A stretch of 64,000 nucleotides of DNA from an uncultured bacterium (GCA_964385615.1 CAYLPP010000014.1:3836-67835); one strand, 5' to 3'; numbered from the stretch's first letter, positions 29,111-62,034 are shown. Notes: generated from the letters alone by a model not told the origin. Made by a program: numbers and translations.

Positions 29111-29183
29111 TGCCCCGGGCCGGAATTGAACCAGCAACCTTATCCTTAGGACGGATCTGCTCTATCCAATTGAGCTACCGGGG
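29111..29183 (-). tRNA. tRNA-Arg(CCU)
   Basis: A manual fold of the reverse complement gives acceptor GCCCCGG/CCGGGGC. The D-arm is GCUCAAUUGGAUAGAGC and the anticodon loop is GUCCUAA, giving anticodon CCU. The T-arm is GCUGG-UUCAAUU-CCGGC, the discriminator is A, and CCA is not encoded. Confidence 0.8.
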
Positions 29184-29255
29184 CGAAGAACGCTTTTTGC
29201 TCGATCCTTTACGAAGCACGCGGCCGATAAGAGGAGGACTGAGAAGTCCGACTAC

Positions 29256-33914: not shown

Positions 33915-36014
33915 TTATATCGAATCCAGGCCGGATAGCAACGAAAGATCAGCAATACGCTCCGTATAGAGCTGATTGATCTTTTTCATTAAAATCTGGC
34001 GGTTAGAGCGGATTGACGCATCTTCAACATTGACCATCACTTGCTTAAAAAAGTCGTTCACCGGCTGATAAAACACCTCGCCAAAGCGGGCCGTCGCCTT
34101 ATCACAATCCTTGATACTTTCAATCTCCCAGGCCTTATCGGCCAGCACCTGGTACAGGACTTTTTCGGAAGGTTCACTCAAAGCTTCGGGCCTGACTTCC
34201 CCTTCCACTTTGATTCCTTTAATAATGTTGCCCGTGCGCTCTATCACTTTTGCCGCTTTAAGAAACGTTTTGGGATCTTTGTGATAAAGAGCCGTCAGTT
34301 TTTCATAGCGTTCAAAAACCTGCGCGAGGTTATCAGAATCGGAGCGAAGAACCGCGAGCAAAATTTCGTGTTCTTTCGTGCCCGGCTTGACTTGCAATTC
34401 AAAAATCACGCGGTCTTCAAAAAACTTTCTAAGTTTATCCTGCCATCCAGATTCCGTCAGCACATTGCCGTAAAGGCGTCCGGCCGTTTCAATCATATTC
34501 TTCGTGGAGAAATGAATCGAAAACGCGCGGATAAGCTTGATCAGCGACCCGCCGGCACGGCGAAGCGCGTAAGGATCCTGACTGCCGGAAGGCTGCATTC
34601 CAAGGCCAAAAGCTCCCGCAAGATGATCAAGGCGGTCAACAATGCCGAACATGGCGCCCAAAAAATTCATTTGCTTGGAAAGTTCACGGTAATCTTCACT
34701 CAGATTTTTCGGAAGGTATTGAGTGCCGATCGCTTCAGCCACCTCATGCTTTTCACCGGAAATCTTCGCGTACTCCCGGCCCGCGATGCCCTGAATATCG
34801 GGAAACTCATAAACCAAATGCGTCATCAGGTCAATTTTAGAAAGCTTCGCAACCCTTGCCAAATCAGCTTGAAGACCGGCATGGCCCGCGAAATCAGCGA
34901 ACTCCGCGGAAAGTTTTTCGATCCGCTCCGCCTTCTGTTTCATATTGCCTAGCTTGCCGAGGTAAGTCACCTGCTCGAGCAAATGGAGTTTGCTTTCGAG
35001 CTTATCCTGAGTGTCCTGTTTATAAAAATAACGCGCGTCTTTCAGGCGGGACTCAAGCACGTTCTCGTAATCTTCGCGGATACGCGGGAGAGAAGGTTTG
35101 GGGCGCGCGCCGTTCATGACCGCGGCGAACTTTCCATTCAGCTTCCCGGAACCGTCATAACAGGCGAAAATTTTCTGATTTTTTTTCATGCAGGAAGCCA
35201 GAACTTCTTTCGGAAGCTCAAGATATTCTTTCTTGAATCCGCCTTCCAGAAGAAACGGTTCTTCCGCCAGCTGGGCCGTAGTCTGAAGAAGTTCTTCATC
35301 ATAATATTTTTGAGCGAAATTTCTGCGCAGAGCGCTCGCGATCAAACTTTTGCGTTCGGTCTGCTCAAGCACGACATTGGCATCCGCGAGCGCCTCTTTA
35401 TAAGTTTCCCAATCCGCGGAAGTCACTTTAAAAGCTTTGGGCGACAGGAACCGGTGACCGTAACTGATATTGCCCGCTTTCAAACCGCAGAATGTGAATG
35501 GCAGAACTTTTTTATCCAGCAGGGCCACCAGCCAGCGGATAGGCCGGGGAAACCGAAACCCGGACTTTTCCCAGCGCATATTTTTGGGAAAAGAAAGGGA
35601 GTTGAAAAGTTCCGTCAGAATCGCGGGGATAACCGCTAAAGAAGTCTTTCCTTTAATCAGCCGGCGAATCACCACGAATTGACCGCGCGGAGTATCTTTA
35701 ACTTCAAGATCGGAGGCCGACGCTTCTTTGCTTTTCAAAAATCCCTGAAGCGCGGGGGTGGGCGTACCGTCCGGCTGATAAGCCTTCTCCACCGACGGCC
35801 CTGAAATCTCAAGATTTTCATCTTCCTGCCTGACGGCCAGGCCTTCTATATAGAGAGCAATCCGGCGGGGCGTAGCTTCAACCTTGATATCGCTGAAAGC
35901 CAGCCGGTTTTTCTGAAAAACTTCGCGCGCCTTCCCCGCAAGGACGCCATAAACGACGTTGAGCGCGTCTGTCGGAAGTTCTTCAGTGCCGAGTTCAACC
36001 AGGAGATTATGCAT
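33915..36014 (-). CDS. glyS: Glycine--tRNA ligase beta subunit
   Basis: 699 aa. It overlaps glyQ by 8 nt. The GlyS layout includes a DALR-like anticodon-binding C-terminus. Confidence 0.9.
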
Positions 36015-36909
36015 GCTGTTTCTTCTTCTTAATTAAAGGAAAGCCGAGTGCCTCACGGCTCTTAAGGTAACCTTCCGCGCATCCGCGCGCCAATGCGCGG
36101 ACTCTTCCAATATAACGGGGGCGCTCATTCACACTGACCGCGCCGCGGGCATCGAGCATATTAAAATAATGAGAAGTCTTGAGGCAAGCGTCATAAGCCG
36201 GAAGCACCAAACCTTCTTCAAGAAGGCGCTTGGCCTGAGCTTCATAATCTTCGAAATGCCGTTTAAGCATCTCAGGATTCGAAGCTTCGAAATTGAATTT
36301 TGAAAATTCTTTCTCCCCCTGCAGATGAACGTCGCCGTAAGTCACGCCCGGCGTCCACTCCACGTCAAACATGGAATGCTTCTTCTGAAGGAACATAGCG
36401 ATACGTTCCAACCCATAAGTAATTTCACAGGAAACCATTTCAAGATCGATGGACCCGCATTGTTGGAAGTAAGTGAACTGCGTCACTTCCTGACTGTCGA
36501 GCCAGACTTCCCAACCCAGGCCCCATGCGCCTAATGTAGGAGATTCCCAGTCATCTTCCACAAACCGGATATCGTGCGCGAGCGGGTCGATCCCGACCGC
36601 GCGCAGGCTGTCGAGATAAAGCTCCTGAGAATTTTCGGGCGCGGGCTTCATAATAACCTGGTATTGATAGTAGTGCTGAGTGCGGTGAGGATTTTCCCCG
36701 TAACGCCCGTCGGTTGGACGGCGCGAGGGCTCTACATAGGCCGCGTTCCAGGGCTCCGGGCCCAGGGCGCGAAGAAACGTGTGGGGTGAAAACGTGCCGG
36801 CGCCGACTTCGAGATCGTAAGGCTGCATAATCAGACAGCCCTTGGAGCTCCAGTAGTTATTGAGCTTCTGGATCAGTTCTTGAAAGGTGAGCGGTTTGGT
36901 CACTGGCAT
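36007..36909 (-). CDS. glyQ: Glycine--tRNA ligase alpha subunit
   Basis: 300 aa. The sequence is highly conserved GlyQ ([13 protein letters not shown]…[17 protein letters not shown]-like). Confidence 0.95.
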
Positions 36910-36951
36910 AAGGACGGCATTCTAGCAAAAAGCCTTAGGTCCTTCAATTGA

Positions 36952-39900
36952 TTAGGCTGAAGCCCCTGTGAGTTCCTGGGCGCGGAGGTAACGGCCCAGC
37001 GTTTCAGAAAGCAGGCTTTGTGCCGTAGGCGTCACAAGCCCGGCGCGGGAAATGTACTCAATACCGACTTTACCCAAAAATTCCGCCATGCGCTGAGTGT
37101 ATTCCTTAACGTGAACCACATCCCCCAGATCACGCTTGAGCTGGACCGCGGCCAAAAGCTGAAGCTGGGTCAGTTGATTCATATATTTAAAGGAAGAGGC
37201 CGGATCCATTTTTTCCAGAACCGCCGGATCGATCAAAAAAGAAGGCAGATGATAAAGGTCTTTGATATTTTCCGGCGCGGATGTCACGGAAACGGAAATA
37301 GCGTCTTTGGAACGGCGTCCGGCAGCCAGAACTTCATCCTGCTGAATAATTTCAAAAACTTTGGAGGCCGGACGGCCCTTGACCCATCGCGCGAGTTCTT
37401 CGGCTCCGCGCCCCGCGAAGTAAACCGCCTTCCCCGCCGGGCTTCCACTCTGCTGGAAACCCTCTTCAAGAAGGTCGAGGTACTGGCTGCGCGCGTCTTC
37501 GGGAATATTCAAAAGCAGTTTCGCCGGAAGCACCGCCGAAGCACCGGCCTTGAAAAGCTTCGAATATCCGGAGGCAAGCTCCGAACGGTCTTCCCCTTGA
37601 ATGAAAATCTCCGTTTTACTTTCCGGGAACATGACACCGTACAACTCGCGCATCACGTCAAGCCCCAGAATTTTCGCGGTCGTCTTTGCGGCAACTTCCA
37701 AAGCCGCGGCTCTCGACTCAGACCGGGCGGACGGCACTTCACCGGAAGATTGCTCGCCCATAATCACCGGTAAAATATCTCCGGCAAAACGCTCAAATTC
37801 CGCCGGTTCAGTCCACTTATGCACCTGCCGGATCTCGCGAATCGGCAGCTCAAGCCGCTGCGGATCAAAACTCTTTATGGTTTGCTTCACGTAAGCATAA
37901 AAATGGTTTCTAACCCAGAAATTCTCATCGCTGTGTTGTTCAATAACCGTCCGCACCGGCCCTAACTGAAAAACCGGGTCTACCGGGAATCTCGCGTCTT
38001 CCCCTCCATAAGCGCGGGCACGCAATCCCTCCACCCTGCCGGCAGGCCCCGCGTATAAATACCCGGGAATCCACAGGACAATCACTTCGTCATCCGCGCT
38101 GAATTTCAACCGTCCGCCGGAAACTTTCGTGAACGCATAAGCAAGAGAACTCTTGCCGGACCTTGATACTCCCGAAAGAATGACCGCGTCTCCCTTCTGA
38201 TTGAATAGAATGTCCGAATGGACAATTTCCATCTTTAGCTGCGCCACGATCTCCGGATATTCTTTACGAATCTTATCCATCCAGCCGGTGACAGCTTCTT
38301 TTAACGCGCCGTTCTCGATACTTCCGGGATTTCCGTCATATAAACCGTTCAGGATTGAATGCACGTATCCCCGATACTGTGTAAATTCAGGACGGCTGAG
38401 AATCTCATAAATCTCTCCGGCTTCCCTAAAAAAAGCATCCGCCCTGCCGGCGGAAATCACGTCAGCCTTCGCGCGCAATTCAGCGCGCGCAGGCGGGTAT
38501 ATTTTCTCAAAAGCGGAAAGCATTTCACCGGCATCTTTATAAAGCCGGTCATCCGGGTTTTCCTTCAGCGCGCCCGCGATAATTTCTGAAAGTTTCTTCA
38601 ATTTATCTTTCGAAATAGCCGCTTCGATCTGCACCTGGTTAGGAAAACTTTCATAAAAGCGGGGAATATCCGCAACGCGGACATCCTCAATCAGCTGATG
38701 CCCTGTCGCTAACTGATAAAGAACAAGCCCCAGGACAAAAACATCCGCGCGGGGATTCACAACCCACACCCCTCGGGTCATTTCAGGCGCTAAATAATCC
38801 AACGTCCCGCGAATAACCTCGTCCGCGGCCATCCCAGGATATAAACTTAGTATCCGGCCTTGTACCTGCGAGAGATTAAAATCAATCAGCTTAAGAGAGC
38901 CGTTTCCGGTAACCATAAAATTGGCCGGCTTCAGATCCCGGTGAACAATTCCCCGAAGATGCGCTTCATGAACCGCCTTCAGAATATTTCTCACGATTTC
39001 AATCAATTTTTCCTCAGTAACCGGATTCAAGTAAAGCCAGTCGAGAAGCGTTTTCCCATCTATGTATTCCATTCCTATAAAAGGAACGGGCACCGTGTCA
39101 TCCGCTTGCGAGGGATACACCTTGACCGCGAACGGATTCTCGCGCCCATTAAAAGGAGCCGCGTAGAGTTCCATCGCTTTACGTTCAAGTTCCGCCATTT
39201 CACGGTAATACCCGCCACTATTTGTATAAATTTTCAGCGCCGCGGTTTTACTTGGATCTGATTTTTCCGTAACCTTATGCACTGTGCCGATACCACCGTC
39301 ACCGCCGATCACACCCCCGGCCTCAAAATCCCGCCCGCCAAACCGGACGTCCGTCCTCAGCTCAGACCTTTTTTGCGTTTCGATTTCAGATAAATGAACG
39401 CGCGCGTATTTTTCAAAATCACCGGGATCCACCATGGACTCATTAACCATCGTGACAGTCCACGGCTCAAGAGCGGTTCCTTCATACCCCGGGAAAATAC
39501 CGGCCATGTACTGTTTCAAATGGCTTTCTCCGGGATTCCTAATAGGCATTTTAAAAGGACCTCCGGAAAGCCGAAACTCCGCTCTCACCAGCCCCACGCC
39601 TAAATAAGATTGATAAGGTATATTATTTTCAGAGTCGTAAGCCCTGGCCCTGAGATTCTCAAAAGAATAAGCGGATCCCGCCAGCAAATGGCCTGGAATG
39701 CGGATCAGATTAATATCATCCGCGGACGCGATTTTAACCCGCCCGTTGGAGACACGGCTGAAAGCGTATCCAAGCGACCCTTTCCCCGATTCACTTTCTC
39801 CGAATAAAAGAACGGCTTCGTTGTTTTCGTTAAAAAGAAGATCGCCGTACATCCGGAAGCTCCGCATGAACGGAACGATATCAGGAAATCTTCCGGAAAT

Positions 39901-42900
39901 TTCCGCGTACCATTTTTGAATTTCTTTTTGAAGTTCCGGATTTTTTTTAAACGCGTAATTATTCTGAGGCAGCCCGTAAATAAAAGACGGCGCCATGTGC
40001 AGAAAGCCGCGGAATTCGGGCCGGTTCAAAATTTCATAAATCCCTTCCAGCGCCTTGGAAAATTCCCTGGCCCTTTCTTCAGTCACCGGCGGAGCTTCAA
40101 TTTTTTTCTCGGCGGAACCGGCGCGCGATTCGGAGCGCGGAGAAACCGTCGTCCTTTCGAAGGGAATGCGCACTGTAATCCGGGTACCCGGCACAAAAGT
40201 CATCAAGGAGGCCGCCTGCTCAAACTCGCCGTCCGCGTTGCGCCGCCAAATCCCTTCTCCCGTAACGATCTCGACAAAATTTCCCACAGTGGAAAGTTTG
40301 CGAAACCCATTGCCCCCATACCATTTCCTCTGGCTTCGTTGCCTCACAACCTCCGGATCTCCGAGACCGTAGCCATTGTCCCAAGCCGTGATTTCCACAA
40401 CAGGCCCGCCTTCCTGCTCAATAACTTTAAAACCCACGGCTCCGCCAAAAGCGTATTCGAGCATATTAAAAATCAATTCATGAATGACTCGGGCCCCGAT
40501 CAGCCATTCCTGGCCAAGCACCTGCTGTTCAAGCCGGTACGCGTCAGAAATAACTGAGAAATAAGGCCCCGTTAAAGCCCGGGAATAAATCGGCAGAGCC
40601 TGATAACCTTCAGCGGTCAAAGCCGCGGCTTTCGGCTCGGCCATCAGCCGCCAACGCTCCGTTTCTTCCGAATCGATCGAACGGAGTTCCGATCTTTTTT
40701 TGACCCATCGTTCTTCATAATATTTTTGAAGCGCTGAGTCCCACTCCCGGACCGTGGAAAACCTTTGCTTGCCGAGCTCGTTTAAATTGGAAAAACGTTC
40801 GTTTACCACTCTAAAAATATCCATTGCGTCCAGTAAACCTGTCGGAGAACTCATGGAGGAAACAGCCCGCGCCAGCAAGGACGCTGAGATAAATCCGGAA
40901 ATCGCTTCACGGTCAGACGTGTACTCATCGCTAAAATCAATAAGGACCGGCTGGTTTTCTTTTGTAATAATGACGTTTCGAGGCTGTAAATCGCCATGCT
41001 CCAGCCCTTCAGCTTCCATAAGCTCCACCGCTTTACCAATCCGCAAAGTCCATTCAACAATCTGCTTTTCAAATTCCTCATCGCTCAAACTTTTCGCGGT
41101 GTAAGCCCACCGTTCCAGATTTTCCCCTTCCGCGTAAAGCCGTTCATACTTCCCGCCCTTTTTCTTCCGGATTCTGGGAAAAACGGGGTTGTCCTGATGC
41201 TTCAAAAGAAAATTGACGATAGGTTTATCCCAATTAATCGGAACCCAGTTCTCTTCCGCGGTGCGTATTTCAGAACGGGCCATGGCGCGCCAGGCCTCAA
41301 ATAATTCCGCGGGATTCGCGTAACGTTCGGCAGGATTAGCGCGGACCGCTTTGGCAATCACAGGCGCGAATTTTTCCCATTCCTTTTCCGCATTCTCTTC
41401 CCGCAAGCGCTGAATTATTTCTGAAGGCGTAAAATTCCTGGAAAGCTTTTCAGCCCGAAGCACTTTTGGGCTGAGTGTTTTAAAAAGCCGGTTCCCGGCA
41501 GCGAGCCAGAAAAGAAGGAGTCCCAGGCTGTAAACTTCCGTTTGCGGTTCCAAAGTACCCGCCGGAGCTTCAGGCGCCGCGAACTGGTCCGTGAAACCCT
41601 TATTCTTACGATTTTGTCCGGCGGGCAGTGCCAGACCAAAATCAATAACCGCGGGCTTGTTTTGAGAAGTCATAATAATATTTTGAGGTTTGATGTCGCC
41701 ATGAAGCACTCCGGCGCGGTAAATTGCCGAATGAGCCGCGAGAATATCTTCAGCGGCTTTTTTTAGATCCACAAAACTTTTTCCTTCTCTCCAGCTGTTA
41801 AGCGGCTGACCTTCCGCAAAATCCATAACCAGAGCCGTATCGCCGTTAATTTCATCATCTCTTTGCGTGACCCGGCCAACACCCAGAACATCAGGCACGA
41901 ATTCCGGGGAAGCTTCATGGGCTTGCTTCATCAGATTAAATTCTTCTTCTTGCGCCTCGAAAGAAATTCCGGAATAGGTGTCATAAACTTTCAAGGCTGT
42001 CTCCCGCCCGCTCACAGTGTCGCGGCCGCGGTAAACCCCGGACAACCCGCCGCCAAACGACTCGCCTCCCGCTTTCGATTCATAAACTCTGCCGGCCAAC
42101 ATGACTTGAACGCGGGACTCAGACCGGGAAATAGCTGCCCGGAACGAGCGGAACATTTCTTCAGCGTCAGCATAACGGGCTGAAGGATCAGGATTGATAG
42201 CCCGGGCAATGACTTTGGCAGCGGGGCCCCAGACATCCAACGCTTCCGTGCTTAAGTCTGAGAGCGCCCTGCGGATCTCCGCCGTGCCGGGAGACTGATT
42301 TTTTTCAATTTTGAGCTTTTCCAAATAGAGAAGCGAGTTAAAATCGCCGTCGCTCGGACTCGAAAAAGGCGGCTTGTGCAAAGCCATCCAGTAAAGAATA
42401 ACGCCAAGGCTGTACACATCAATCCGCGGAGTCAGGACGCCAGAACCTTGAAGCGCTTCCGGCGCGGCAAAAAGGTAGGTCCCCTTAACCCGTGAAAGCG
42501 GTTTCCCGATTCTGCTTCCGAAACGAGCCACGCCAAAATCCAGAATTTTAACTCCGGTATCCGTAATATAAATATTCGCGGGCTTCAGGTCCTGATGCAC
42601 AATTTCAGGATGCAGAGAGGCCGCGGCTTCAAGAACGGAAAGGGCCTGCTCCAACACTTGGGGAGCATCCTTACCCTTCACCCAAGCCGCGAGATCCTGC
42701 CCTTCCAAAAATTCCATGACGATAGACGGCATAGGATCTTCAGGACCGTCAATATGCCCCCACCCAATCACCGCGGGCACATGCTCTTTATCCTTCCGGG
42801 CATATTCAATCAAAGCTCTGTATTCGTTTTTGCTGGCAGCTTCACGGTTCACATATCTGTAAATCTTAACTGCTACCGGATTAGAAGATCCGCCGTCATC

Positions 42901-45900
42901 CTTGTGGGCTTTAAAAACCCAGGCATAACCGCCGGCGCCGGCCAAACTATCCACGGAATACTGCGTCCCGTTGACTGTTAATTTTTTCCCGACAAAAAGC
43001 GACGGGTCATTCAAGGCTTTCGGCCTCAGCTCTTCAGACGCCGCCTGTTCGAGTACCGTTAAAAATTCTTCCGCGTTCCGGTAACGCTTTTCCGGAGCAA
43101 CATCCAGCGCCTTACGCAGGGCCGGAATAAAAGAATGCCAAGTTTCCGGCAAACGCGACGCAAGTTCCTCTTCCGTGACCTGGCGGTTATGTTCCGCTAT
43201 GTAATCCACCGGATTTCCCGCCTGAAAAAGCTTCTGCCCGGAAGCGAGTTCAAAAAGAACTTCGGCCAGCATATAAACATCCGTGGACGGTTCATAAGGC
43301 CCGCTGCCCCTTGTGAAAATTTCAGGAGCCATGTAGGCGGGTGTTCCGGTAATTTTCCAGGAAGCTTTAACCGGCATTGTCTTTGTGCCGATCTGAGAGG
43401 TCATGAAATCCAGTATTTTCACCTTCCCGGCGGGAGTCACCAAAAAATTCCAGGGTTTAATATCCAGATGCACCACAGGCTCATTGAGCATATGCAAAGA
43501 AGCAACCGCCCTGGCGGTTTTCAAAGCAACGCGGATTTTTTCCGCGTCCGGCTTCCCTTCAGCCCACGCGGCCAGAGTTTCCCCCTGAATATATTCCATT
43601 GCGATCGCGGAATATCCGTTACCGCTGTCAAGACCAGCACCATAAAATTCAGGCACATACAAATTACTAGCTGACGCGGCTTGCATAACTTTGACTTCGT
43701 GGGAGACCAGAGAGCGGAGAAATTCAGGATCGTTTAAAAGATGCGACGGGATGATTTTGACGGCAATATCCGGTTGACCGGAAGCTGAGGCCAGATAGAC
43801 CTCTCCTCCCGCACCGCTGTCAAGAAACCGGGTCAATGTATAAACTTTACTACCGAATCTTTTAAGTTCGATTTTTTTTCCTAAATAGGCAGGCGCAGGG
43901 GTTGTCGCCCGGACCTCAGAGCGCACAGGCGGAGAAAAAACATCCGGGGGAAGTTCCGCGCTGAGAACCTCCAGCAATTCTCCGGCATCCTGAAAACGCT
44001 TTTTCGGATCCGGATCAAGCGCCTTACGCAAAATTTTACCGACCTTCTCTTTAAGCTCTTTTTCCAGAGGAAGCCGGTCTTCAAGATCCGCTTGAGGCAG
44101 CGGTTTTTTACGCTCCTGCCCCAGCTTGGCGTATTGCCCTTCCCGTTCTTGTTCCGGCGTCAGAGCAAACAGCCTTTGCCCGGTCAAAACCTCAAAAATA
44201 CTCGCGCCAAGAAGGTAAACGTCCGTTGCCGGAGTGTAAGGCCCGGTTCCATTAAAAAACATTTCCGGCGCCATGTAGGCGGGCGTTCCGCGGACATCCG
44301 TGTTCCGCTCCGAAGGCGCGGGCTTCCTGCCGATCTGACTGTAAGTAAAATCCAGAATCTTAACTTTCCCCGCGGCCGTAACAAACAGATTGGAGGGTTT
44401 TAAATCCAGATGAACCACTTTGTTTCGATGCATCATCGAAGCCGCGCGGACAACATTCACTGACATCGAAAGTTTTTGCGGTAAGGAAGCGTTCTCTTCC
44501 GCCCACTTTTTCAGACTTTCGCCCTCCAAAAACTCCATGGCGATTAATGAAAAAGAGTCCTGGGAAAAGCCAATTTTGGATCCATAAAACATGGGAACAT
44601 ATTCATTGTCTTTTCCCGCGGCCCGGAGCGCCTGAACTTCATGCTTAATCTGACTCTCTCTCAAAGCGCGCCGGCGGCGGCCTTGATCGCTGAAAACCTT
44701 AACGGCTATCGAAGGAAATCGAGCGGGGTCCACGGAAACGGGAACCGCGCGGTAAACACGGCCGTTCCCTTCTTTGTCCAGCATGGACTCCAAACGGTAC
44801 TTCGCTGAGCGAGTATGAACAATAACACCCAAAAAGCCGGAGTGACGCTTCCAGAGCTGCACTCTGCTTTTCTGAAGTGTTCCCGCGGGCCATTCGATAA
44901 AACCTTGTTTAGGATGCCGGTATTGAAAACCGGTTGGCGTCCGCTGGCGCAGAATCGCGCGGGAAACATCAATCCGGGTTCCCCCTCCGCTGGCTTCTAT
45001 AAGCGTTTGGGCCAACTGCATCAACGCTTTGCCGATTCCCTCGACTAACTCTAAGTCGCTGATATGAACCACCATCCCGGGGCTGCCGGATTCTAATCCC
45101 GGAATTTCCGAAACCCACGGGAAAGGACCTGCCCACTTTTCTCCCTCCGGGTCAATTTGCGCGGAGTAGGTATTGTCCTTATTCCTTTTCATGAGGATAT
45201 CGATAAACCCGGCCGGATTTCGCCCTCCATCGGCAGTCCGCCGGAAAGCCGTTACACGAAACGCGATTTCGGGGGGTTTCTGTCCGGCAGGAATATCCGC
45301 AGGAACCGGTCTTTGCTTCCAGCTGAATCCATAAAAAATCCGGTAGGGCTCTTCAACTTTCCGAATTTGTCCGCCGGCCGAAACCGCGGTTGAAGTGTCC
45401 GCTTCTTTTTCCTTCGCGGCAACCACCATGGGGCGAGTCATTCTTTCCTGGCGGGTGCTCCTCAAATCCGTGTTGAACCTGTTGGCTTTTAAAATCTGCC
45501 ACCAGACATCTTTAATTTCACTTTCAATTTCAATAATTTTCGCGGCTTCCGCGGATTTCGCGGGATAAGCGGCGGCAATCACCTGCAGTTTCAGGCAAAT
45601 ATCCGGAAGAGCTCCATCCATCCAGAATAAAATCCCGCCCCATCCCGCTTTGATGCCGGCAGGCGTGCGGTAAATCCCCTGAGTAGTCCGCTGGGAGTTC
45701 CGGAAAGCAAAACCCGCGTAGGTTGTATCCAGAAAACGGCCGAATTCCTTTTCAAATTCCTGAATGTTTCCCCGGCGAAGATGAAGATAAAGAATTTGCT
45801 GCTGAACCTGCATGGGGAAAAACCCCACTCCGTCAACCTTTTGAAGCGCTTTCAAAAGCAAAAGCACGCGGTCATAAATTCTGTCAGCCTGAAATTTATC

Positions 45901-48774
45901 CCCCGAACTTTGATAAAAAAAAGCGATCTCGCTCAGCTCATTGATGTAGCCGGAAATCTCCGCGCGGATATCGGGCATAAACACAGGCTTTTTCTCCGCC
46001 TCCGCCAGCCGAAGATTAAAAGCTTCACGGCTTTCATAACCGGTAATTCCCAGCCCTTGATAAATAGCCCACTCCTGATCCGTAGCTTGCGCCATCTCTC
46101 TGAGTGTTTCAAGTTCCGGATATTTCAGAAGCCTCATTTTTTCATCCGCCTGCTTGGAAGCGAGATTAATCAGTCCCGGATTTTCGCCGGAGTCGCCGTA
46201 AAGCATATCGTCGAGCTCCCCGTGCGGAATTTCGGAAATATCCTTCCCCTGATACTCCGCTTTTTGAGGCCCGAGATCCTGCCAGTTTTTCTCGTCGTAG
46301 ATTCGGATAATCCGGGAAGTTTCATACATCAGCTCGTCCCTGCGGGCTTCTACCGACGCGCGTTTTGAGGCTTTATTTGTTTTCTCAGCATTCCGGACAA
46401 ACGCGATTCTCTTGAGAATACTGGAAGCATCCGCAAGCGAAGAGGCCGCCCTCGGTGCCGGTAAACCGGCACCGCCCGCGTAAAGATCATCTCCCGCCAT
46501 CCGGAGATGCGTTCTCCAGTGGTAACTTGTTTTTCTTTTTTGGAGATCCTCGTAAATTTCCCCAAAAATCTCGGGTAAAAGCCCGCGATTCTCATTTTCA
46601 TACGTCATCGATTCAACTTCACTGTGGTAAGCCAGCATTAAATCCGCCGCACGCATCAGATACAAGCCAACCAGCGCCTGATCAATTTTAGAATCCGGAT
46701 TAAGCATTTTTAGAAATTCCATTGAAAAAAGGATGGCGTTGCGCCGGTAGGAAACCTGGAGGGTTTTCTCAAAAAGATCGTCCGGCCTGTCGTCCTCATA
46801 AAACAGAACCGTCGGGAGCTGCATGGCCAGAATAAAAACATTTTTCCTGAGCCACTCAAGCGTGGATTTATGCGATTCTTGAACGGCCGTTTCAAGATAA
46901 GCCAGGGCGTGTTCAATCATTCTTTCCGGCTGAGCTTTCCTCCCGCCTTCTTCAGGCAAAACGCCTGGGTCGGATTCCAACGGATCATTCTCATAGTACG
47001 CTTCGGAATTTAACGCGGGCGGAGGGCTGTAAAGGCGGTAGCGATTTTTAACATTGATCGAAAGAGGAAGCATTTTCCCCCCGTAATCAGGCAAAAGATG
47101 TTCCGCGGATCCGTCTTTATGGGCCGAGCGCAATTCTGCCCGGGCGGGTGAAGCCCCTTTGGAAATTCCATAATCGGTAATTTGTCTTCGAATTTCCGCG
47201 CGCGCGGTTTGAAGCGCTGACGGCCAGGCTTCATCGTCCATCATCCACTGCGGAACGCGGACGGCGGACGCCCCAAAATCGAGTTTGCGGTTTTTTCCGT
47301 TCATCGCGTCGCCGTATTTGCGGGAATCCTCGATCTGACTCAAATGGGGCATGATCACGGCGTAAGAAATTTTCCGCTCCCGGAATTGCCTGCAGAGACC
47401 TTCAGTGTGAAAACCGCCCGCGATCACGGCCGCGGGTTTCTTATCCCCGGCCAGAAGGCTTAAAATTTCGCGCCCCATGGTTTCATCACGCTGATTTGCC
47501 AGATCGTAAAACCTGGATGCTTTTCCGTAAACTTCGCGGAGATCCGCCGGCAGAACGGTTTCAAGGCCGGTTCTCGAATCTTGATTCCAAAGTCGGTATT
47601 CCGCAGATGTCACTGAAAGCGAAAGGATTTTCCGAAGTTTCAGCCACTGTCTGAATTTCTCGAGAAGCGCCTGAGCCCGGCTTTCCGAGGCCAGCTTTTG
47701 AAGAACCTGCTCCCGTAATTTTTCCATTTCTTCCATCAGGACACGGGCTTCAATCTCTCCGCTCAAAATCTGAAATCCTTCAAAAACAAAAAAATCAGGA
47801 TACTCTTCAAAGCGGAATCCTTTAGAAGAGGCCTGGCTGTAAAAGCGTTCCCAGGATTCCCGGAGCCCGGATGTTTCCGGGATTCCGCCGTTTTCTTTTT
47901 GAAGCGGAAGTATTTTCTCCATCTTGTTCTTTGCGGCCCACGCCGAAAGTTTTTCTTTCTGCGTTTCCGCCTTCTTGGCGTTTATCAGGGGCTGACGCCG
48001 TTTCAGCTCAAAAAAACGGACCAGCATCGGCCACTCTAACTGCGCGCGCGCATTCCCTAAATCCAACTGAAGAATTTTCTGGGCCTGCCCTTCAAGTTCC
48101 GATAGATAAACCGGAAGCGGAATTTTTTCGTCTTCGAAACCCGACCATATCCGAAAAAATTCAAAAAGCTCTTTTGAAAAAACCCGGGAAGCTTCCTTAC
48201 TGATTTCAGAAAACTTCTTTTCAAGGCCCGCGCTTATCCGGTCTTTTTGAGAGGATATTTCCTGATAGAGCTGAAAGTTTTCAAGATAAAGCGGAAGGTC
48301 TTCAGTACCGTAAGCCGTCACAAACTCGCGGTTCCGAAGCGTGAACCTCTCGGCACCGCCGATTTCAGCTTCACGCATCAGCGTACCGGCAATTTCAAGA
48401 TTCAGCGCGCCGTTATCAAAAAAGGTCAGGCGTGAGGGATCAAGCCGTCCGGCACCTCCCTCAATAAAAAGAGAGTTTAATCCGCGGTTGGCTTTTAAAA
48501 ATTCCAACAAGCCGTCGGTACTTTTCTGCGCTTCATACTGCCCATGCGCGTCAGGAATGATAAAAAGAGAAGGATTTTCCCCGAAAGTTTCCATCAAGGT
48601 TCCAAGTTCAGGCGGGATGGCTGGAGAGTTTTCAGAGGTTTTGACCTCTCCCAGAGGACGGTCGAAAAGGATTTCCGGAGCAGTCCAAGCGGGTTGACTG
48701 CCGACATAAAAAAGGAGCGTAAAAAAAGCAACGCCCCGCCGAAAGCTAAAATAACGTAAGTGGTTGATTTTCAT
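36952..48774 (-). CDS. Giant 3,940-aa multi-kinase protein. It has a signal peptide or signal anchor and a ~1,300-aa unknown N-region. It contains 6 Hanks-type Ser/Thr kinase domains, a GHKL ATPase domain, 2 HprK/P-like P-loop modules and a 340-aa unknown C-region
   Basis: It is one uninterrupted ORF. The kinase catalytic loops and DFG-type motifs read from the translation are HLDLKPSN/DFT, HLDIKPWN/DFM, HQDLKPAN/DFG, HGDIKPQN/DFG, HGDLQPRN/DFS and HRDLKPAN/DFN. The VAIK-type lysines are IAVKVF, IAVKII, VAVKIY, TALKVY and AALKIY. APE motifs are present. The GHKL motifs are NMLEYAFGG…ITAWDNGYGLG. The HprK-like Walker A and downstream motifs are GESESGKGSLGYAF…ASADD and GVSRSGKSSLAYAF…SADDE. 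I verified codon positions for HRD (38941-38943) and DNG (40369-40377) on the DNA. Confidence 0.85.
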   Translation of the reverse strand: MKINHLRYFSFRRGVAFFTLLFYVGSQPAWTAPEILFDRPLGEVKTSENSPAIPPELGTLMETFGENPSLFIIPDAHGQYEAQKSTDGLLEFLKANRGLNSLFIEGGAGRLDPSRLTFFDNGALNLEIAGTLMREAEIGGAERFTLRNREFVTAYGTEDLPLYLENFQLYQEISSQKDRISAGLEKKFSEISKEASRVFSKELFEFFRIWSGFEDEKIPLPVYLSELEGQAQKILQLDLGNARAQLEWPMLVRFFELKRRQPLINAKKAETQKEKLSAWAAKNKMEKILPLQKENGGIPETSGLRESWERFYSQASSKGFRFEEYPDFFVFEGFQILSGEIEARVLMEEMEKLREQVLQKLASESRAQALLEKFRQWLKLRKILSLSVTSAEYRLWNQDSRTGLETVLPADLREVYGKASRFYDLANQRDETMGREILSLLAGDKKPAAVIAGGFHTEGLCRQFRERKISYAVIMPHLSQIEDSRKYGDAMNGKNRKLDFGASAVRVPQWMMDDEAWPSALQTARAEIRRQITDYGISKGASPARAELRSAHKDGSAEHLLPDYGGKMLPLSINVKNRYRLYSPPPALNSEAYYENDPLESDPGVLPEEGGRKAQPERMIEHALAYLETAVQESHKSTLEWLRKNVFILAMQLPTVLFYEDDRPDDLFEKTLQVSYRRNAILFSMEFLKMLNPDSKIDQALVGLYLMRAADLMLAYHSEVESMTYENENRGLLPEIFGEIYEDLQKRKTSYHWRTHLRMAGDDLYAGGAGLPAPRAASSLADASSILKRIAFVRNAEKTNKASKRASVEARRDELMYETSRIIRIYDEKNWQDLGPQKAEYQGKDISEIPHGELDDMLYGDSGENPGLINLASKQADEKMRLLKYPELETLREMAQATDQEWAIYQGLGITGYESREAFNLRLAEAEKKPVFMPDIRAEISGYINELSEIAFFYQSSGDKFQADRIYDRVLLLLKALQKVDGVGFFPMQVQQQILYLHLRRGNIQEFEKEFGRFLDTTYAGFAFRNSQRTTQGIYRTPAGIKAGWGGILFWMDGALPDICLKLQVIAAAYPAKSAEAAKIIEIESEIKDVWWQILKANRFNTDLRSTRQERMTRPMVVAAKEKEADTSTAVSAGGQIRKVEEPYRIFYGFSWKQRPVPADIPAGQKPPEIAFRVTAFRRTADGGRNPAGFIDILMKRNKDNTYSAQIDPEGEKWAGPFPWVSEIPGLESGSPGMVVHISDLELVEGIGKALMQLAQTLIEASGGGTRIDVSRAILRQRTPTGFQYRHPKQGFIEWPAGTLQKSRVQLWKRHSGFLGVIVHTRSAKYRLESMLDKEGNGRVYRAVPVSVDPARFPSIAVKVFSDQGRRRRALRESQIKHEVQALRAAGKDNEYVPMFYGSKIGFSQDSFSLIAMEFLEGESLKKWAEENASLPQKLSMSVNVVRAASMMHRNKVVHLDLKPSNLFVTAAGKVKILDFTYSQIGRKPAPSERNTDVRGTPAYMAPEMFFNGTGPYTPATDVYLLGASIFEVLTGQRLFALTPEQEREGQYAKLGQERKKPLPQADLEDRLPLEKELKEKVGKILRKALDPDPKKRFQDAGELLEVLSAELPPDVFSPPVRSEVRATTPAPAYLGKKIELKRFGSKVYTLTRFLDSGAGGEVYLASASGQPDIAVKIIPSHLLNDPEFLRSLVSHEVKVMQAASASNLYVPEFYGAGLDSGNGYSAIAMEYIQGETLAAWAEGKPDAEKIRVALKTARAVASLHMLNEPVVHLDIKPWNFLVTPAGKVKILDFMTSQIGTKTMPVKASWKITGTPAYMAPEIFTRGSGPYEPSTDVYMLAEVLFELASGQKLFQAGNPVDYIAEHNRQVTEEELASRLPETWHSFIPALRKALDVAPEKRYRNAEEFLTVLEQAASEELRPKALNDPSLFVGKKLTVNGTQYSVDSLAGAGGYAWVFKAHKDDGGSSNPVAVKIYRYVNREAASKNEYRALIEYARKDKEHVPAVIGWGHIDGPEDPMPSIVMEFLEGQDLAAWVKGKDAPQVLEQALSVLEAAASLHPEIVHQDLKPANIYITDTGVKILDFGVARFGSRIGKPLSRVKGTYLFAAPEALQGSGVLTPRIDVYSLGVILYWMALHKPPFSSPSDGDFNSLLYLEKLKIEKNQSPGTAEIRRALSDLSTEALDVWGPAAKVIARAINPDPSARYADAEEMFRSFRAAISRSESRVQVMLAGRVYESKAGGESFGGGLSGVYRGRDTVSGRETALKVYDTYSGISFEAQEEEFNLMKQAHEASPEFVPDVLGVGRVTQRDDEINGDTALVMDFAEGQPLNSWREGKSFVDLKKAAEDILAAHSAIYRAGVLHGDIKPQNIIMTSQNKPAVIDFGLALPAGQNRKNKGFTDQFAAPEAPAGTLEPQTEVYSLGLLLFWLAAGNRLFKTLSPKVLRAEKLSRNFTPSEIIQRLREENAEKEWEKFAPVIAKAVRANPAERYANPAELFEAWRAMARSEIRTAEENWVPINWDKPIVNFLLKHQDNPVFPRIRKKKGGKYERLYAEGENLERWAYTAKSLSDEEFEKQIVEWTLRIGKAVELMEAEGLEHGDLQPRNVIITKENQPVLIDFSDEYTSDREAISGFISASLLARAVSSMSSPTGLLDAMDIFRVVNERFSNLNELGKQRFSTVREWDSALQKYYEERWVKKRSELRSIDSEETERWRLMAEPKAAALTAEGYQALPIYSRALTGPYFSVISDAYRLEQQVLGQEWLIGARVIHELIFNMLEYAFGGAVGFKVIEQEGGPVVEITAWDNGYGLGDPEVVRQRSQRKWYGGNGFRKLSTVGNFVEIVTGEGIWRRNADGEFEQAASLMTFVPGTRITVRIPFERTTVSPRSESRAGSAEKKIEAPPVTEERAREFSKALEGIYEILNRPEFRGFLHMAPSFIYGLPQNNYAFKKNPELQKEIQKWYAEISGRFPDIVPFMRSFRMYGDLLFNENNEAVLLFGESESGKGSLGYAFSRVSNGRVKIASADDINLIRIPGHLLAGSAYSFENLRARAYDSENNIPYQSYLGVGLVRAEFRLSGGPFKMPIRNPGESHLKQYMAGIFPGYEGTALEPWTVTMVNESMVDPGDFEKYARVHLSEIETQKRSELRTDVRFGGRDFEAGGVIGGDGGIGTVHKVTEKSDPSKTAALKIYTNSGGYYREMAELERKAMELYAAPFNGRENPFAVKVYPSQADDTVPVPFIGMEYIDGKTLLDWLYLNPVTEEKLIEIVRNILKAVHEAHLRGIVHRDLKPANFMVTGNGSLKLIDFNLSQVQGRILSLYPGMAADEVIRGTLDYLAPEMTRGVWVVNPRADVFVLGLVLYQLATGHQLIEDVRVADIPRFYESFPNQVQIEAAISKDKLKKLSEIIAGALKENPDDRLYKDAGEMLSAFEKIYPPARAELRAKADVISAGRADAFFREAGEIYEILSRPEFTQYRGYVHSILNGLYDGNPGSIENGALKEAVTGWMDKIRKEYPEIVAQLKMEIVHSDILFNQKGDAVILSGVSRSGKSSLAYAFTKVSGGRLKFSADDEVIVLWIPGYLYAGPAGRVEGLRARAYGGEDARFPVDPVFQLGPVRTVIEQHSDENFWVRNHFYAYVKQTIKSFDPQRLELPIREIRQVHKWTEPAEFERFAGDILPVIMGEQSSGEVPSARSESRAAALEVAAKTTAKILGLDVMRELYGVMFPESKTEIFIQGEDRSELASGYSKLFKAGASAVLPAKLLLNIPEDARSQYLDLLEEGFQQSGSPAGKAVYFAGRGAEELARWVKGRPASKVFEIIQQDEVLAAGRRSKDAISVSVTSAPENIKDLYHLPSFLIDPAVLEKMDPASSFKYMNQLTQLQLLAAVQLKRDLGDVVHVKEYTQRMAEFLGKVGIEYISRAGLVTPTAQSLLSETLGRYLRAQELTGASA

Positions 48775-48935
48775 GGGGAAAGACAGCGAAATCTTTCACC
48801 AGAAGATACGTTGATAAGGCCTAAAAAGCAAGGCCTGAGGACAGGTAATTTTTGATTTTAAAATAAACTATCAAAACCATTCCCGGATGCTATTTATTGC
48901 TTTAGATTGCTAGTTTCATAATTCCTCATTTTTAC

Positions 48936-48987
48936 ATAAAAAACAAGGGGAATGGCCGCGTTTTCACGCGAAATCCATTCCCCCTGA
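48936..48987 (-). terminator. Rho-independent terminator downstream of comEA
   Basis: The minus-strand RNA is GGGGAAUGGauuucgcgugaaaacgcggCCAUUCCCC followed by UUGUUUUUUAUG. This is a 9-bp GC-rich stem plus a U-tract, 24 nt after the comEA stop. Confidence 0.6.
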
Positions 48988-49010
48988 ACCCGGTCACGGT
49001 TCCCCTGCCG

Positions 49011-49313
49011 TTAAACGGAAACCTGGTTTTTGATTTTCTCGTACTTCGCTTCTCCAATGCCCCGCACTTGAACCAGTTCATCGGCTTTTTTAAAACCGCC
49101 GTTGGCCTGGCGAAACTCCACAATGCGGTGAGCGATCGCAGGACCGATTCCATGAAGAGTTTGAAGCTCTTCAGGGCCGGCAGTGTTAATATTCACCGCC
49201 TTGGCCTGCGCCTCCACCGCGGGAGCCGCGTGCAGAATGGAAAAGTTATACAGATAACCCGTTCCGATCATCAGAACCGCGATCAGAAAAGTTTTCATGG
49301 TCTTTTTCATCAT
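49011..49313 (-). CDS. comEA: ComEA-family competence protein (helix-hairpin-helix DNA-binding)
   Basis: 100 aa with a signal peptide. It carries tandem HhH motifs (NINTAGPEELQTLHGIGPAIAHRIVEFR…VRGIGEAKYEKI). Confidence 0.85.
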   Translation of the reverse strand: MMKKTMKTFLIAVLMIGTGYLYNFSILHAAPAVEAQAKAVNINTAGPEELQTLHGIGPAIAHRIVEFRQANGGFKKADELVQVRGIGEAKYEKIKNQVSV

Positions 49314-49415
49314 GGCTTATTACCTCCTTTCTTTTCTTTACACGGCTCTTTTTATAAACATCCCCGTCTCAAGACTCAAAAGGTTTTTGCCTTAAAATTA
49401 AAAATAATATGAATT

Positions 49416-50012
49416 ATGCACATATTTCCCGTTGACACCCGCGGTGTGCGCACATACCATCCTGTCATGCTCGAATATTTAGGCCCCAAAATCAGGAATC
49501 TGCGCAGAGAAAAAGGACTGACGCTCGTGGAAATCGCCGGCAAAACCGGAATCGCGCAGGCGACCCTTTCGAGGATTGAAACCGGAACCATGATCGGCAC
49601 GGTTGAGAGCCACGTCAAAATCGCGGAAGTCCTGGGAGTTCCTCTCGCGGAACTTTATACGGACCCGGACACTTCTTGTTCGCGGGTTTCGCACACCCCG
49701 GCCCACAAAACGGCTCATCACGGGAAAAGTATTCAGAGGGAAATGCTCACTCCGGAGTATCCGCCAAAAAAAATGAGCCCTGTGCTGACGGTACTTCAGC
49801 CGAATACGGAAACTCCTGAAGAACGGGCGCCGAAAGGAACCGAAAAATTCATTTATCTGATTCAGGGTGAAGTCATGGTCAAAACAGGCGGTGAATCTTT
49901 CACGCTCACGCCCGGAGAGAGTCTTTATTTTGAAGCCTCTCCGGCTCATCAGGTAAAAAACGTTTCTTCCTCCCCCGCGCATTTTCTGAGCGTGACCTGC
50001 CAAGCAAAATAA
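49416..50012 (+). CDS. XRE-family HTH transcriptional regulator with C-terminal cupin domain
   Basis: The HTH is LTLVEIAGKTGIAQATLSRIETG. The cupin beta-barrel is in the C-terminal half (…IYLIQGEVMV…GESLYFEASPAHQV). An alternative start at the ATG at 49467 (MLEYLGPK) fits a TTGACA-N17-TACCAT promoter at 49432-49460. Confidence 0.8.
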   Translation: MHIFPVDTRGVRTYHPVMLEYLGPKIRNLRREKGLTLVEIAGKTGIAQATLSRIETGTMIGTVESHVKIAEVLGVPLAELYTDPDTSCSRVSHTPAHKTAHHGKSIQREMLTPEYPPKKMSPVLTVLQPNTETPEERAPKGTEKFIYLIQGEVMVKTGGESFTLTPGESLYFEASPAHQVKNVSSSPAHFLSVTCQAK

Positions 50013-51411
50013 GCACCGCCAAAACCAAATAGTATCCCGCCGTTTGAAAGGCTGAAAGCGGTCCTATCCGCGCGTAACTCCACGGATGAGACGCACAAAA
50101 ATAAATCCACGCCAAAGTTGCTTTCAGAAAGAATGACGCGGTTGAGAAAAATAAAAAAGCGGCCGGAGGAACCCAGGCAAGAACCAGCCCCATTAAGACA
50201 CTTAAAAGCGTGAAGTGAAAAAGAGGCACCGCGAAAAAATTAGCAGGCCAGCCCACGGTGGAAATCCCTCCAAAATGCCCGAGAACCACCGGAAAAGTTC
50301 CAAGCGTTACGGCCAGAGGCACGGCCCAAAAATCTTTCCATTTCCACTCTTCCCAGAGCGGAAAGAAAACAATCATGGATAAAACCGAAAGGAATGAGAG
50401 TTGAAATGAAACATTCCCGGCCGCGCGGGTATCGGGCAGAAGCACGCATAAAAGCGCCAGGAAGAAAAGGTTCAGGGAATGACGCGGGCGGTTGAGCACA
50501 ATCGCCAAAAAACCCGCTCCCGCCATCCAGCCCGCGCGCAAAACCGGATACCCCATTCCCGCCACACCCACTTGAAAAAAGGAAAATAGAATCCCAAAAA
50601 AGGATGCCATCCGGCGCTCAATCCCGCAAGCAATCAGGATTAGATAAAAAGTTCCGGCCACCAGAGCGATATTCAGACCTGAAATCGCGAGCAAGTGCGA
50701 AGTACCGCTCCGGAAGAAAATATCCTTGGTCTCAGAATCAAGGCCCGCCCGGGTTCCCAATACAAGCGCTTTAAAAACCGCTCCATCCCGCCCTCCGGCA
50801 TAACGGCCGATTGTTTCCGCGATCTTTTCACGGATTCTAAAAATCCAGGAGGAATGGCCCTTCTTGAGAATAAAAACCGACCGCCACCCGATCCCCTGAA
50901 ACACAGCCGTAATCCCCTGGCTTCGCAAGTACTCCGGATAATCAAAGTCACGGCTGAAAGATTTCGGCGGTTCTAACTTTCCGTAGAGAGAGAGAAAATC
51001 TCCCGGCCCAGGACTTATTTTTGGATTAATCAAATAAACCTGAACCTTCCCGCGGGCACTGTGCCGGGAAACCTCCCTGCTATCGAGAACGAAGGAAACC
51101 GTCCGCTTTTTCCCTTTTATTTTAATTTCAGGCAGGCTGTTCACTTCCCCTTTAACGCGGACAAATTCTGAACCTGCTGAGAAACGCTCCACCGCGTCCG
51201 GAGGCTGGAAGTGATCCGCGTAACTGTAAAGGACGCCAAGAAAAAACCAGGCCAGGCAAAGCGCGGGAAGAAAACCGCGGGAACGGATAGAAAACCCTAA
51301 CGCCGGGAGAAGAAAAAACATTAAAAAAACAGGAAGGCGCACAGGGATCCATTCAAAACACAAAATCCCCGCGAGGAAAGGCGCGGACAGCCAGAAAAAG
51401 GGACAGCGCAT
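49906..51411 (-). CDS. comEC: ComEC/Rec2-family competence membrane protein (short form lacking the C-terminal metallo-beta-lactamase domain)
   Basis: 501 aa. The polytopic membrane protein has the DUF4131-like N-terminus plus the competence domain. Its 3' end overlaps the convergent XRE gene by ~107 nt. Confidence 0.75.
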   Translation of the reverse strand: MRCPFFWLSAPFLAGILCFEWIPVRLPVFLMFFLLPALGFSIRSRGFLPALCLAWFFLGVLYSYADHFQPPDAVERFSAGSEFVRVKGEVNSLPEIKIKGKKRTVSFVLDSREVSRHSARGKVQVYLINPKISPGPGDFLSLYGKLEPPKSFSRDFDYPEYLRSQGITAVFQGIGWRSVFILKKGHSSWIFRIREKIAETIGRYAGGRDGAVFKALVLGTRAGLDSETKDIFFRSGTSHLLAISGLNIALVAGTFYLILIACGIERRMASFFGILFSFFQVGVAGMGYPVLRAGWMAGAGFLAIVLNRPRHSLNLFFLALLCVLLPDTRAAGNVSFQLSFLSVLSMIVFFPLWEEWKWKDFWAVPLAVTLGTFPVVLGHFGGISTVGWPANFFAVPLFHFTLLSVLMGLVLAWVPPAAFLFFSTASFFLKATLAWIYFCASHPWSYARIGPLSAFQTAGYYLVLAVLILLGRSRSENARGRKKRFLPDEPERLQNKDSLRA

Positions 51412-52094: not shown

Positions 52095-52123
52095 TTCAAG
52101 ACTCCTTGGTTTGAATAGAGCGG

Positions 52124-61970: not shown

Positions 61971-62034
61971 AAAGAACAATATTGAAGTGGTGTGATTATA
62001 AAAAGAAAGGAGGGATTGTCAAACAGGAATTTCT

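Follow-up and report, generated by a model that had tools for sequence, protein, structure and literature searches.

The window, as we call the whole 64,000-nucleotide stretch of DNA analyzed here (GCA_964385615.1, CAYLPP010000014.1:3836-67835, from an uncultured bacterium), carries a giant open reading frame (ORF) whose product combines, from the N to the C terminus, a signal-peptide-like start, an N-terminal domain, kinases 1-5, a HATPase_c-like domain, a first P-loop module (M1), kinase 6, a second such module (M2) and a C-terminal domain (Table 1). An identical protein, P0001, is present in the public collection, where it forms a singleton cluster and stems from an NCBI contig of 69,303 bases. 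Scans with Pfam and NCBIfam models identified six protein-kinase stretches in the giant ORF, five of them Hanks kinases and one short and RIO/APH-like, with catalytic loops at amino acids (aa) 1455, 1769, 2060, 2358, 2593 and 3278. The subject of this study is the pair of modules M1 and M2, which represent a new, very rare and divergent domain family that is absent from curated catalogues.

An earlier reading, made from the sequence alone (the sequence-only reading), had described two paralogous modules flanking kinase 6. Both are indeed found where it placed them, within one ORF, and BLASTP of the excised regions aligned M1 with M2 at 34% identity over 247 aa (E = 7e-36). That reading also took the copies to be about half identical, which is true of a 59-aa core (32 of 59 positions, or 54%) and not of the whole module. 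The similarity extends from ~25 residues before the motif (E/G)IYEIL.RPEF, which reads GIYEILNRPEF at aa 2911 in M1 and EIYEILSRPEF at aa 3454 in M2, to ~90 residues beyond LRARAY, indicating units of ~250 aa each instead of the ~150 aa first proposed. The EIYEIL-RPEF segment, previously interpreted as a leader preceding each module, turned out to lie within the domain, where it forms a conserved helix in the helical subdomain at the N terminus. Within the modules, VLLFGESESGKGS begins at aa 2988 (window position 39813) in M1, and VILSGVSRSGKSS begins at aa 3531 (window position 38184) in M2. When all 13 domains of the family described below were compared, the closest relative of M1 was the module of P0002 (55% identity) and that of M2 was the fragment P0003 (41%), indicating that the two copies diverged long ago and did not arise by a recent tandem duplication.

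To define the family, we searched 1.84 billion cluster representatives exhaustively with HMMER, using a profile built from M1 and M2. This search found 12 proteins, including the query P0001, with 13 domains in total. None of the 12 proteins belongs to a cluster of more than two sequences; nine have multiple domains and a length of 2073-7439 aa, the others being P0003 (208 aa, the fragment mentioned above), P0007 (586 aa) and P0012 (1111 aa). Pairwise identity among the 13 domains ranges from 17 to 55%. The family alignment displays an N-terminal helix, RA..FA.AL.EIY, which belongs to the helical subdomain and is present in all members, then a strand ending in a near-invariant Asp, followed by the P-loop G.S..GK[GS]S, in which the G, the K and the last S are invariant. 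All 13 domains have an Asp ~20 residues past the P-loop, in the form [EDN]D or SD; M1 and M2 both read SADD. The alignment also holds an IPG.L motif and an invariant A-R-A within RARA[YF]. Over the whole alignment, G-K-x-S and A-R-A are invariant, and D, S, R, G and P residues are near-invariant. The P-loop comes in two forms, GKGS in seven of the 13 domains, including M1, and GKSS in the other six, including M2. Given that GKGS is the sole module type in P0002, P0005, P0009, P0011 and P0012, it is a family variant, probably functional, rather than the product of decay of a redundant copy. We had considered that M1 could be a decayed copy, and rejected this idea because the GKGS P-loop is present in more than half of the domains, including those of single-module proteins. 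A word-indexed homologue search with M2 gave zero matches, pattern scans detected no relatives of M2 in GTDB genomes or of M1 in viral contigs and JGI metagenomes, and the PADLOC anti-phage defence profiles returned only P-loop noise (E >= 0.01).

We next turn to the fold of the modules. AlphaFold2 (AF2) models were built from the 13-sequence alignment, without templates. The M2 model has a predicted local distance difference test score (pLDDT) of 88 and a predicted template modelling score (pTM) of 0.86, and the M1 model has a pLDDT of 84 and a pTM of 0.84; in both, a helical stretch of ~80 residues leads into a core of mixed alpha/beta structure. When the M2 model was submitted to Foldseek, ranks 1-25 were all chains of HPr kinase/phosphorylase (HprK/P; 1ko7, 3tqf, 1jb1 and 1knx), with E values from 4e-8 to 1e-5 and a probability of 1.00, and phosphoenolpyruvate carboxykinase (PEPCK) was retrieved at a weaker E of ~3e-4. 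The likeness to HprK/P and PEPCK stands clearly above that to ordinary P-loop NTPases and kinases.

HprK/P has two activities, as a protein-serine kinase and as a phosphorylase, and its C-domain forms hexamers. The acidic pair of its LVADD motif, located after the strand that follows the P-loop helix, provides the catalytic and Mg-binding aspartates, and in ordinary P-loops the Ser/Thr next to the Walker Lys ligates Mg2+. Firmicute HprK/P enzymes have a MurE/F-like N-domain, which is absent in the short proteobacterial forms and is not present in the modules either. Using four HprK/P C-domain sequences recovered from PDB alignments, we aligned the family to HprK/P with hhalign, which gave a probability of 83% and an E of 9e-6 over 81 columns. 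The register brings together the strands preceding the P-loops, places K on K, the SADD of M1 and M2 on VADD of the HprK/P acidic pair, and LRARAY on LEIRGL, such that the invariant second Arg of RARAY is matched with the Arg in EIRG of the HprK/P signature. The HprK/P Walker A motif GxSGxGKS and signature [ILM]E[IV]RG[ILMV]G[IV][ILM] correspond to residues 155-162 and 203-211, respectively, of the Lactobacillus casei enzyme (L. casei; PMC2937029). This Walker A motif is matched by GVSRSGKS in M2 (aa 3535-3542) and partly by GESESGKG in M1, where the Lys is kept and the Ser is replaced by Gly. According to the models, the modules have an HprK/P-type fold, and they are probably remote homologues of HprK/P. 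The HprK/P-like P-loop put forward in the sequence-only reading is thus borne out at the level of the fold, not at that of the signature sequence, which is absent. That reading had named two observations that would together speak against it, the lack of a significant profile match and a fold unrelated to P-loop kinases; only the first was made, and the predicted fold is HprK/P-like.

Both modules are framed by short separators. Nearly all domain boundaries of the giant carry the motif R[SA]ExR, for which we counted 11 copies compared with 0.23 expected from shuffled sequences. One copy, the eleventh (RAEFR at aa 3064, first base 39585), marks no boundary, being internal to M1. Separators contained in the AF2 models have a pLDDT below 50; for the remaining two, the neighboring residues are likewise modeled with low confidence. 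Copies of R[SA]ExR are likewise found in P0002, P0004, P0005, P0006 and P0008 (8, 18, 9, 9 and 4 copies, respectively, with ~0.2 expected in each), and RSExR frames the module on both sides in the window giant, P0002, P0004, P0005 and P0008. The fourth residue of the separator is protein-specific (M in P0004, A in P0005, V in P0002), and the flanks are enriched in Pro at positions -2/-3 and in Ala, Ser or Thr at +1. P0011 (4626 aa), a distant member of the family, has no RSExR and displays nine copies of A[AS]SLG, for 0.01 expected. Since its module is kept with A[AS]SLG instead of RSExR, the separator “dialect” seems to change between lineages. We did not find either motif described in the literature that we searched. 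Taken together, these observations suggest that the separators are linkers defining autonomous domains, which we refer to as beads.

We also examined the codons used at 42 RSExR sites in four genes, namely that of the window giant and those of three further loci, L081 (10001-23524), L083 (8001-18140) and L084 (6001-28320). The Ser is encoded by TCN at all 42 sites and never by AGY, although AGY accounts for 27-38% of the Ser codons in these genes. This constant TCN codon is consistent with a common origin of the linkers. In contrast, the codons of the Arg, Glu and variable residues differ between sites, indicating that selection acts on the peptide. A role of RSExR as a DNA-level recombination signal was considered and rejected, since the codons vary freely and the constant TCN is explained by common descent.

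The coordinates of the modules, their motifs, the separators and the other domains of the giant protein are given in Table 1.

Table 1. Features of the giant ORF and its separators (window positions; residues are those of the giant protein, except in the last line)
Feature	Residues (aa)	Window position	Strand	Remarks
Giant ORF	3940 aa in length	36952..48774	minus	Single uninterrupted frame; holds M1, kinase 6 and M2
N-terminal region	1-545	47140-48774	minus	Signal-peptide-like start, then ~500-aa domain with (I/L)xDAHGQYEAQ motif
Kinase 5	2505-2694	40693-41262	minus	Truncated ~190-aa RIO/APH/Kdo-like domain; HGDLQPRN, DFS
GHKL/HATPase_c-like domain	2699-2879	40138-40680	minus	Directly upstream of M1
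Separator RSESR	2880-2884	40123..40137	minus	Between HATPase-like domain and M1; adjoining residues 1-6 of M1 model have pLDDT <50
Module M1	2885-3135	39370..40122	minus	N-terminal helical subdomain and predicted HprK/P-fold P-loop core
M1 Walker A variant GESESGKGS	2992-3000	39775..39801	minus	Lys2998; Gly replaces the usual Ser/Thr after Lys
M1 SADD	3017-3020	39715..39726	minus	Counterpart of HprK/P LVADD aspartates, via M1-M2 alignment
M1 LRARAY	3041-3046	39637..39654	minus	Family-invariant RARA motif at position of HprK/P signature loop
Separator RSELR	3136-3140	39355..39369	minus	Between M1 and kinase 6; residues 250-258 of M1 model have pLDDT <50
Hanks kinase 6	3141-3429	38488..39354	minus	HRDLKPAN at aa 3278; DFN in place of DFG
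Separator RAELR	3430-3434	38473..38487	minus	Between kinase 6 and M2
Module M2	3435-3683	37726..38472	minus	Architecture as M1
M2 canonical Walker A GVSRSGKSS	3535-3543	38146..38172	minus	Lys3541; aligned by hhalign to HprK/P P-loop
M2 SADD	3559-3562	38089..38100	minus	In register with HprK/P ADD (hhalign)
M2 LRARAY	3584-3589	38008..38025	minus	Arg3587 aligns with Arg of HprK/P EIRG signature
Separator RSESR	3684-3688	37711..37725	minus	Between M2 and C-terminal domain; residues 249-260 of M2 model have pLDDT <50
C-terminal domain	3689-3940	36955..37710	minus	No Pfam hit; conserved in P0006 (55% identity) and P0002
R[SA]ExR, first bases	525 (RAEIR), 545 for the first two	47202, 47142, 43923, 42126, 41277, 40695, 40137, 39369, 38487, 37725	minus	
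A[AS]SLG in P0011	570, 1077, 1351, 1599, 2372, 3455, 3828, 4306, 4327			Two copies frame its module exactly

The N terminus of the giant protein, MKINHLRYFSFRRGVAFFTLLFYVGSQPAWTAPE, resembles a Sec signal peptide, and none of its further hydrophobic segments reaches transmembrane strength. From its sequence, we infer that the protein is probably exported. The ~500-aa N-terminal domain is common to most module-bearing giants and displays a weak match to the ChaN/Tiki superfamily (PF04187, E 1e-3, below the cutoff); it could possibly act as a protease or as an anchor. A word-indexed homologue search identified the same domain in four short proteins of 396-902 aa (P0014-P0017). In the six kinases, the position of the Mg-binding DFG motif (approximately aa 1475, 1789, 2079, 2378, 2613 and 3298) is occupied by DFT, DFM, DFG, DFG, DFS and DFN, respectively, so that only two of six domains have the canonical motif and several may be atypical kinases or pseudokinases. 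Kinase 5 shares 68% identity with the corresponding unit of P0006, while the Hanks domains are far less conserved (~30%). The HATPase_c match (aa ~2760-2875, E 4e-5) scores 24.4 bits, just below the Pfam cutoff of 26.4, and this domain is 56% identical to aa 3757-3971 of P0006. With a GHKL/HATPase_c-like domain beside the kinases and the modules, the giant protein would combine three or four different ATP-using folds.

The genomic context was analyzed by BLAST of the giant protein against the family members, Pfam scans and contig look-ups. P0006 (4507 aa) and P0002 (3379 aa) are orthologues encoded at the same locus as the giant, with one module each and with domain sets that differ. The locus, which covers window positions 33915-53551 and is conserved in L081 and L083, comprises cbiA, tonB, comEC, an HTH-cupin regulator gene, a comEA-like gene, the giant gene, glyQ, glyS, PPDK and a sigma-70 gene. 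In three assemblies, the syntenic giant gene encodes 3379, 3940 or 4507 aa, with a different set of domains each time, indicating that domains are shuffled within it. A scan with glyQ gave best matches of 70-71% identity that were spread over many phyla and thus pointed to no single lineage. The contig carrying P0006 (L084, contig k141_2773652, 178,521 bases) also encodes P0004, which has one HprK-like module, ~6 kb upstream, as well as an 8109-aa gene; the presence of genes of 4507, 7439 and 8109 aa on a single contig points to a lineage with several giant genes.

Elsewhere in the window, a second large ORF of 1912 aa (23399-29137, minus strand) has neither a Pfam hit nor an RSExR motif, and an 1885-aa equivalent is syntenic in L081. 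Its listed TTG start overlaps a tRNA-Arg(CCT) gene (29111-29184, minus strand), implying that its actual start lies further downstream. A cobalamin riboswitch (61701-61976, minus strand; 39 bits for a gathering score of 31.5) is located upstream of a 629-aa ORF (59736-61625) and fits the presence of cobalamin-related genes nearby (CbiA/CobQ-like, 52124-53551). No HPr-like His15 motif was found in any frame of the 64-kb window, where the neighboring genes include glyQS, PPDK, sigma-70, comEC and tonB.

We propose that M1 and M2, which diverged long ago, belong to a new, very rare family of ~250-aa domains with the HprK/P-PEPCK fold and act as autonomous enzymatic beads, not as regulators of kinase 6, a reading to which we assign a probability of roughly 60%. 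The most conserved columns of the family are those that align with the catalytic machinery of HprK/P, i.e., the Walker Lys, the Ser that follows it, the Asp of ADD and the Arg of RARA, and this conservation of active-site residues suggests a phosphotransferase. By analogy with HprK/P, each module would bind ATP or pyrophosphate (PPi) at its P-loop, and, judging from the alignments, the ADD aspartates would bind metal and provide base catalysis, and phosphate would be bound by the RARA arginine; the GKGS form found in M1 may bind metal differently. The module would then phosphorylate, or phosphorolytically dephosphorylate, the hydroxyl of a substrate. Lasso-peptide precursor kinases are HprK/P-fold enzymes of ribosomally produced, post-translationally modified peptide (RiPP) clusters that phosphorylate serine on substrates other than HPr, and, by analogy with these kinases and with HprK/P, the likeliest acceptor would be a protein serine. 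As beads bounded by R[SA]ExR, with a domain composition that varies freely between orthologues, the modules would work as independent units of a secreted string-of-enzymes protein.

Several observations weigh against this proposal. The Hpr_kinase_C profile (PF07475), the check suggested in the sequence-only reading, has no match in the whole protein, in M1, in M2 or in any of the 13 domains, even at E <= 10, and all other curated profiles failed as well. The best of the NCBIfam HprK models, TIGR04352 (HprK_rel_A, HprK-related kinase A), covers the P-loop only, with an E of 0.08 and 12 bits compared with a cutoff of 200. Searches of all PDB sequences with phmmer and with the family profile returned only generic Walker A matches (E > 0.05) and no HprK/P. 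The signature of HprK/P is missing from the aligned segments, LRARAYGGE in M2 and LRARAYDSE in M1, which agree with it only in the first hydrophobic residue and the Arg and have an Arg in place of the Glu. The His that precedes the P-loop strand of HprK/P is not conserved in the family, and M1 has no Walker Ser/Thr beside its Lys. The active-site geometry is deduced from alignments, and the structures are predictions based on 13 sequences. Finally, export would leave the ATP supply unobvious, unless the protein acts inside another cell or uses PPi. As defined by profile and signature, the modules are not members of the HprK/P family, and they form a new family.

The separators may have a further role. 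That they are protease sites is a tentative idea, and equally tentative is the broader scenario in which the giant is a secreted polyprotein, with R[SA]ExR (in the window giant, P0002, P0004-P0006 and P0008) or A[AS]SLG (in P0011) as processing sites whose cleavage, possibly by the ChaN/Tiki-like domain, would release about ten enzymes. M1 and M2 would in that case be free HprK/P-type protein-serine kinases/phosphorylases, reaching the periplasm or another cell together with the Hanks kinases.

Among the alternatives to autonomous enzymatic beads, the one that survives best, although we regard it as unlikely, is that the modules are non-catalytic pseudoenzymes, serving as nucleotide-binding or oligomerization scaffolds that assemble the giant protein or its fragments through their HprK/P-like core, much as the C-domain of HprK/P builds hexamers. 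It would fit such a role that M1 and half of the family have Gly at the position of the Mg-ligating Ser/Thr, and that neither the Glu of the HprK/P signature nor the upstream His is conserved; in addition, the two copies present in one chain could pair. However, the catalytic and phosphate-binding columns are the most conserved of the alignment, an invariance that is unexpected for a pure scaffold at 17-55% pairwise identity.

The order M1 - kinase 6 - M2 led the sequence-only reading to propose that the modules act as nucleotide-dependent regulators or phosphorylases of the kinase between them, for instance on its activation loop. In support of this idea, HprK/P itself combines kinase and phosphorylase activities, the module of P0012 shares its chain with a PP2C phosphatase, likewise a phospho-signaling enzyme, and that of P0006, the only one in this protein, comes immediately after a Hanks kinase, this pair aligning with kinase 6 and M2 at 29% identity over 584 aa. 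However, the bracketing of a kinase is unique to the window giant, given that P0002 and P0006 have one module each at the same locus. In P0002, the module follows an unrelated region of ~400 residues that separates it from the nearest kinase, and stands directly before the C-terminal domain; in P0004 (7439 aa), it lies more than 2300 residues away from the sole kinase. No Hanks kinase is detectable in P0005, P0008, P0010 and P0011, which carry pseudouridine synthase, DUF218, amino-acid kinase and HTH domains, and P0009 carries an ABC1 kinase and an M48 peptidase. A module beside a Hanks kinase is therefore found only in the window giant and in P0006, and not in P0002, P0004, P0005 or P0008-P0011. 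Moreover, M1, kinase 6 and M2 are set apart from each other by separators of the very type that delimits the rest of the domains. Since the adjacency is not conserved, a dedicated coupling to kinase 6 is not supported, and we consider such regulation improbable; instead, we infer that M1 - kinase 6 - M2 is likely to be one lineage-specific combination of beads.

It is still less probable that the modules are PEPCK-type small-molecule kinases acting on a metabolite. This would fit the “metabolic” multi-enzyme giants of Omnitrophota, as multi-enzyme giant proteins have been described (bioRxiv 10.64898/2026.06.07.730766) and family members carry AA_kinase, DUF218 and pseudouridine synthase domains. 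Yet PEPCK is far larger than the module and has an N-terminal substrate-binding domain for which the module has no counterpart, the structural match to PEPCK is weaker than that to HprK/P, and phospho-signaling domains, i.e., six kinases and the HATPase, dominate the window giant. Lastly, a chance GxxxxGK motif or a mis-assembled or non-coding ORF, to which the failure of curated profiles might point, can be dismissed in view of the E of 7e-36 between the copies, the 12 homologous proteins and their conserved motifs, the confident AF2 models and the syntenic orthologues in two independent assemblies.

On its predicted fold, the module family represents a third, hitherto uncatalogued branch of the HprK/P-PEPCK fold class, with its own motif, GK[GS]S ... 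[ED]D ... RARA[YF]. To our knowledge, the other protein kinases of the HprK/P type are almost all regulators of HPr or enzymes that tailor RiPPs; here, HprK/P-type chemistry would be joined with Hanks, RIO-like and GHKL-type ATPase domains in a single chain, forming a “kinase array.” The separators provide a testable handle on the organization, and possibly the processing, of giant multi-enzyme proteins, and, should the polyprotein scenario hold true, they would constitute the first explicit cleavage-site grammar for such proteins in uncultivated bacteria.

Compared with the C-domain of HprK/P (PF07475; 1ko7, 1jb1, 1knx and 3tqf), the module shows the same order of elements, namely hairpin, P-loop, helix, strand-ADD and Arg loop, and M2 has the same Walker A motif GxSxxGKS. 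In contrast, the identity is only 14-19%, with no detection by PF07475 or the HprK hidden Markov models, the invariant RARA[YF] stands where EIRGxGII would be, an ~80-residue helical subdomain with the RA..FA.AL.EIY helix takes the place of the MurE/F-like N-domain, and half of the family has GKGS instead of GKS. Moreover, whereas HprK/P is a free hexameric regulator of HPr, the module always forms an internal part of a longer protein, in most cases a giant multi-enzyme protein that looks secreted. PEPCK, which belongs to the same fold class as HprK/P, differs from the module by its size (>500 aa), its separate substrate domain and its kinase-1a/2/3 motifs. The HprK-like kinases of RiPP clusters and the HprK-related kinases A/B of NCBIfam share with the module a divergent HprK/P-fold P-loop, and TIGR04352 gives its best HprK-type signal; however, at 12 bits compared with 200 the module is not a member, and those kinases are stand-alone proteins of small biosynthetic clusters. 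As for the chain in which the modules are embedded, giant multi-enzyme proteins (“multi-enzyme clusters”) have been described in Omnitrophota (bioRxiv 10.1101/2023.11.21.568195 and 10.64898/2026.06.07.730766), and a preprint on these giants suspects post-translational cleavage, at cleavage points that are unknown. The proteins analyzed here are shorter (2-7.4 kaa) and have explicit short separators, RSExR and A[AS]SLG, that are not described in those papers; like the Omnitrophota giants, they tile many unrelated enzymatic domains in one long chain with an N-terminal export or anchor signal, and are encoded by several giant genes per genome.

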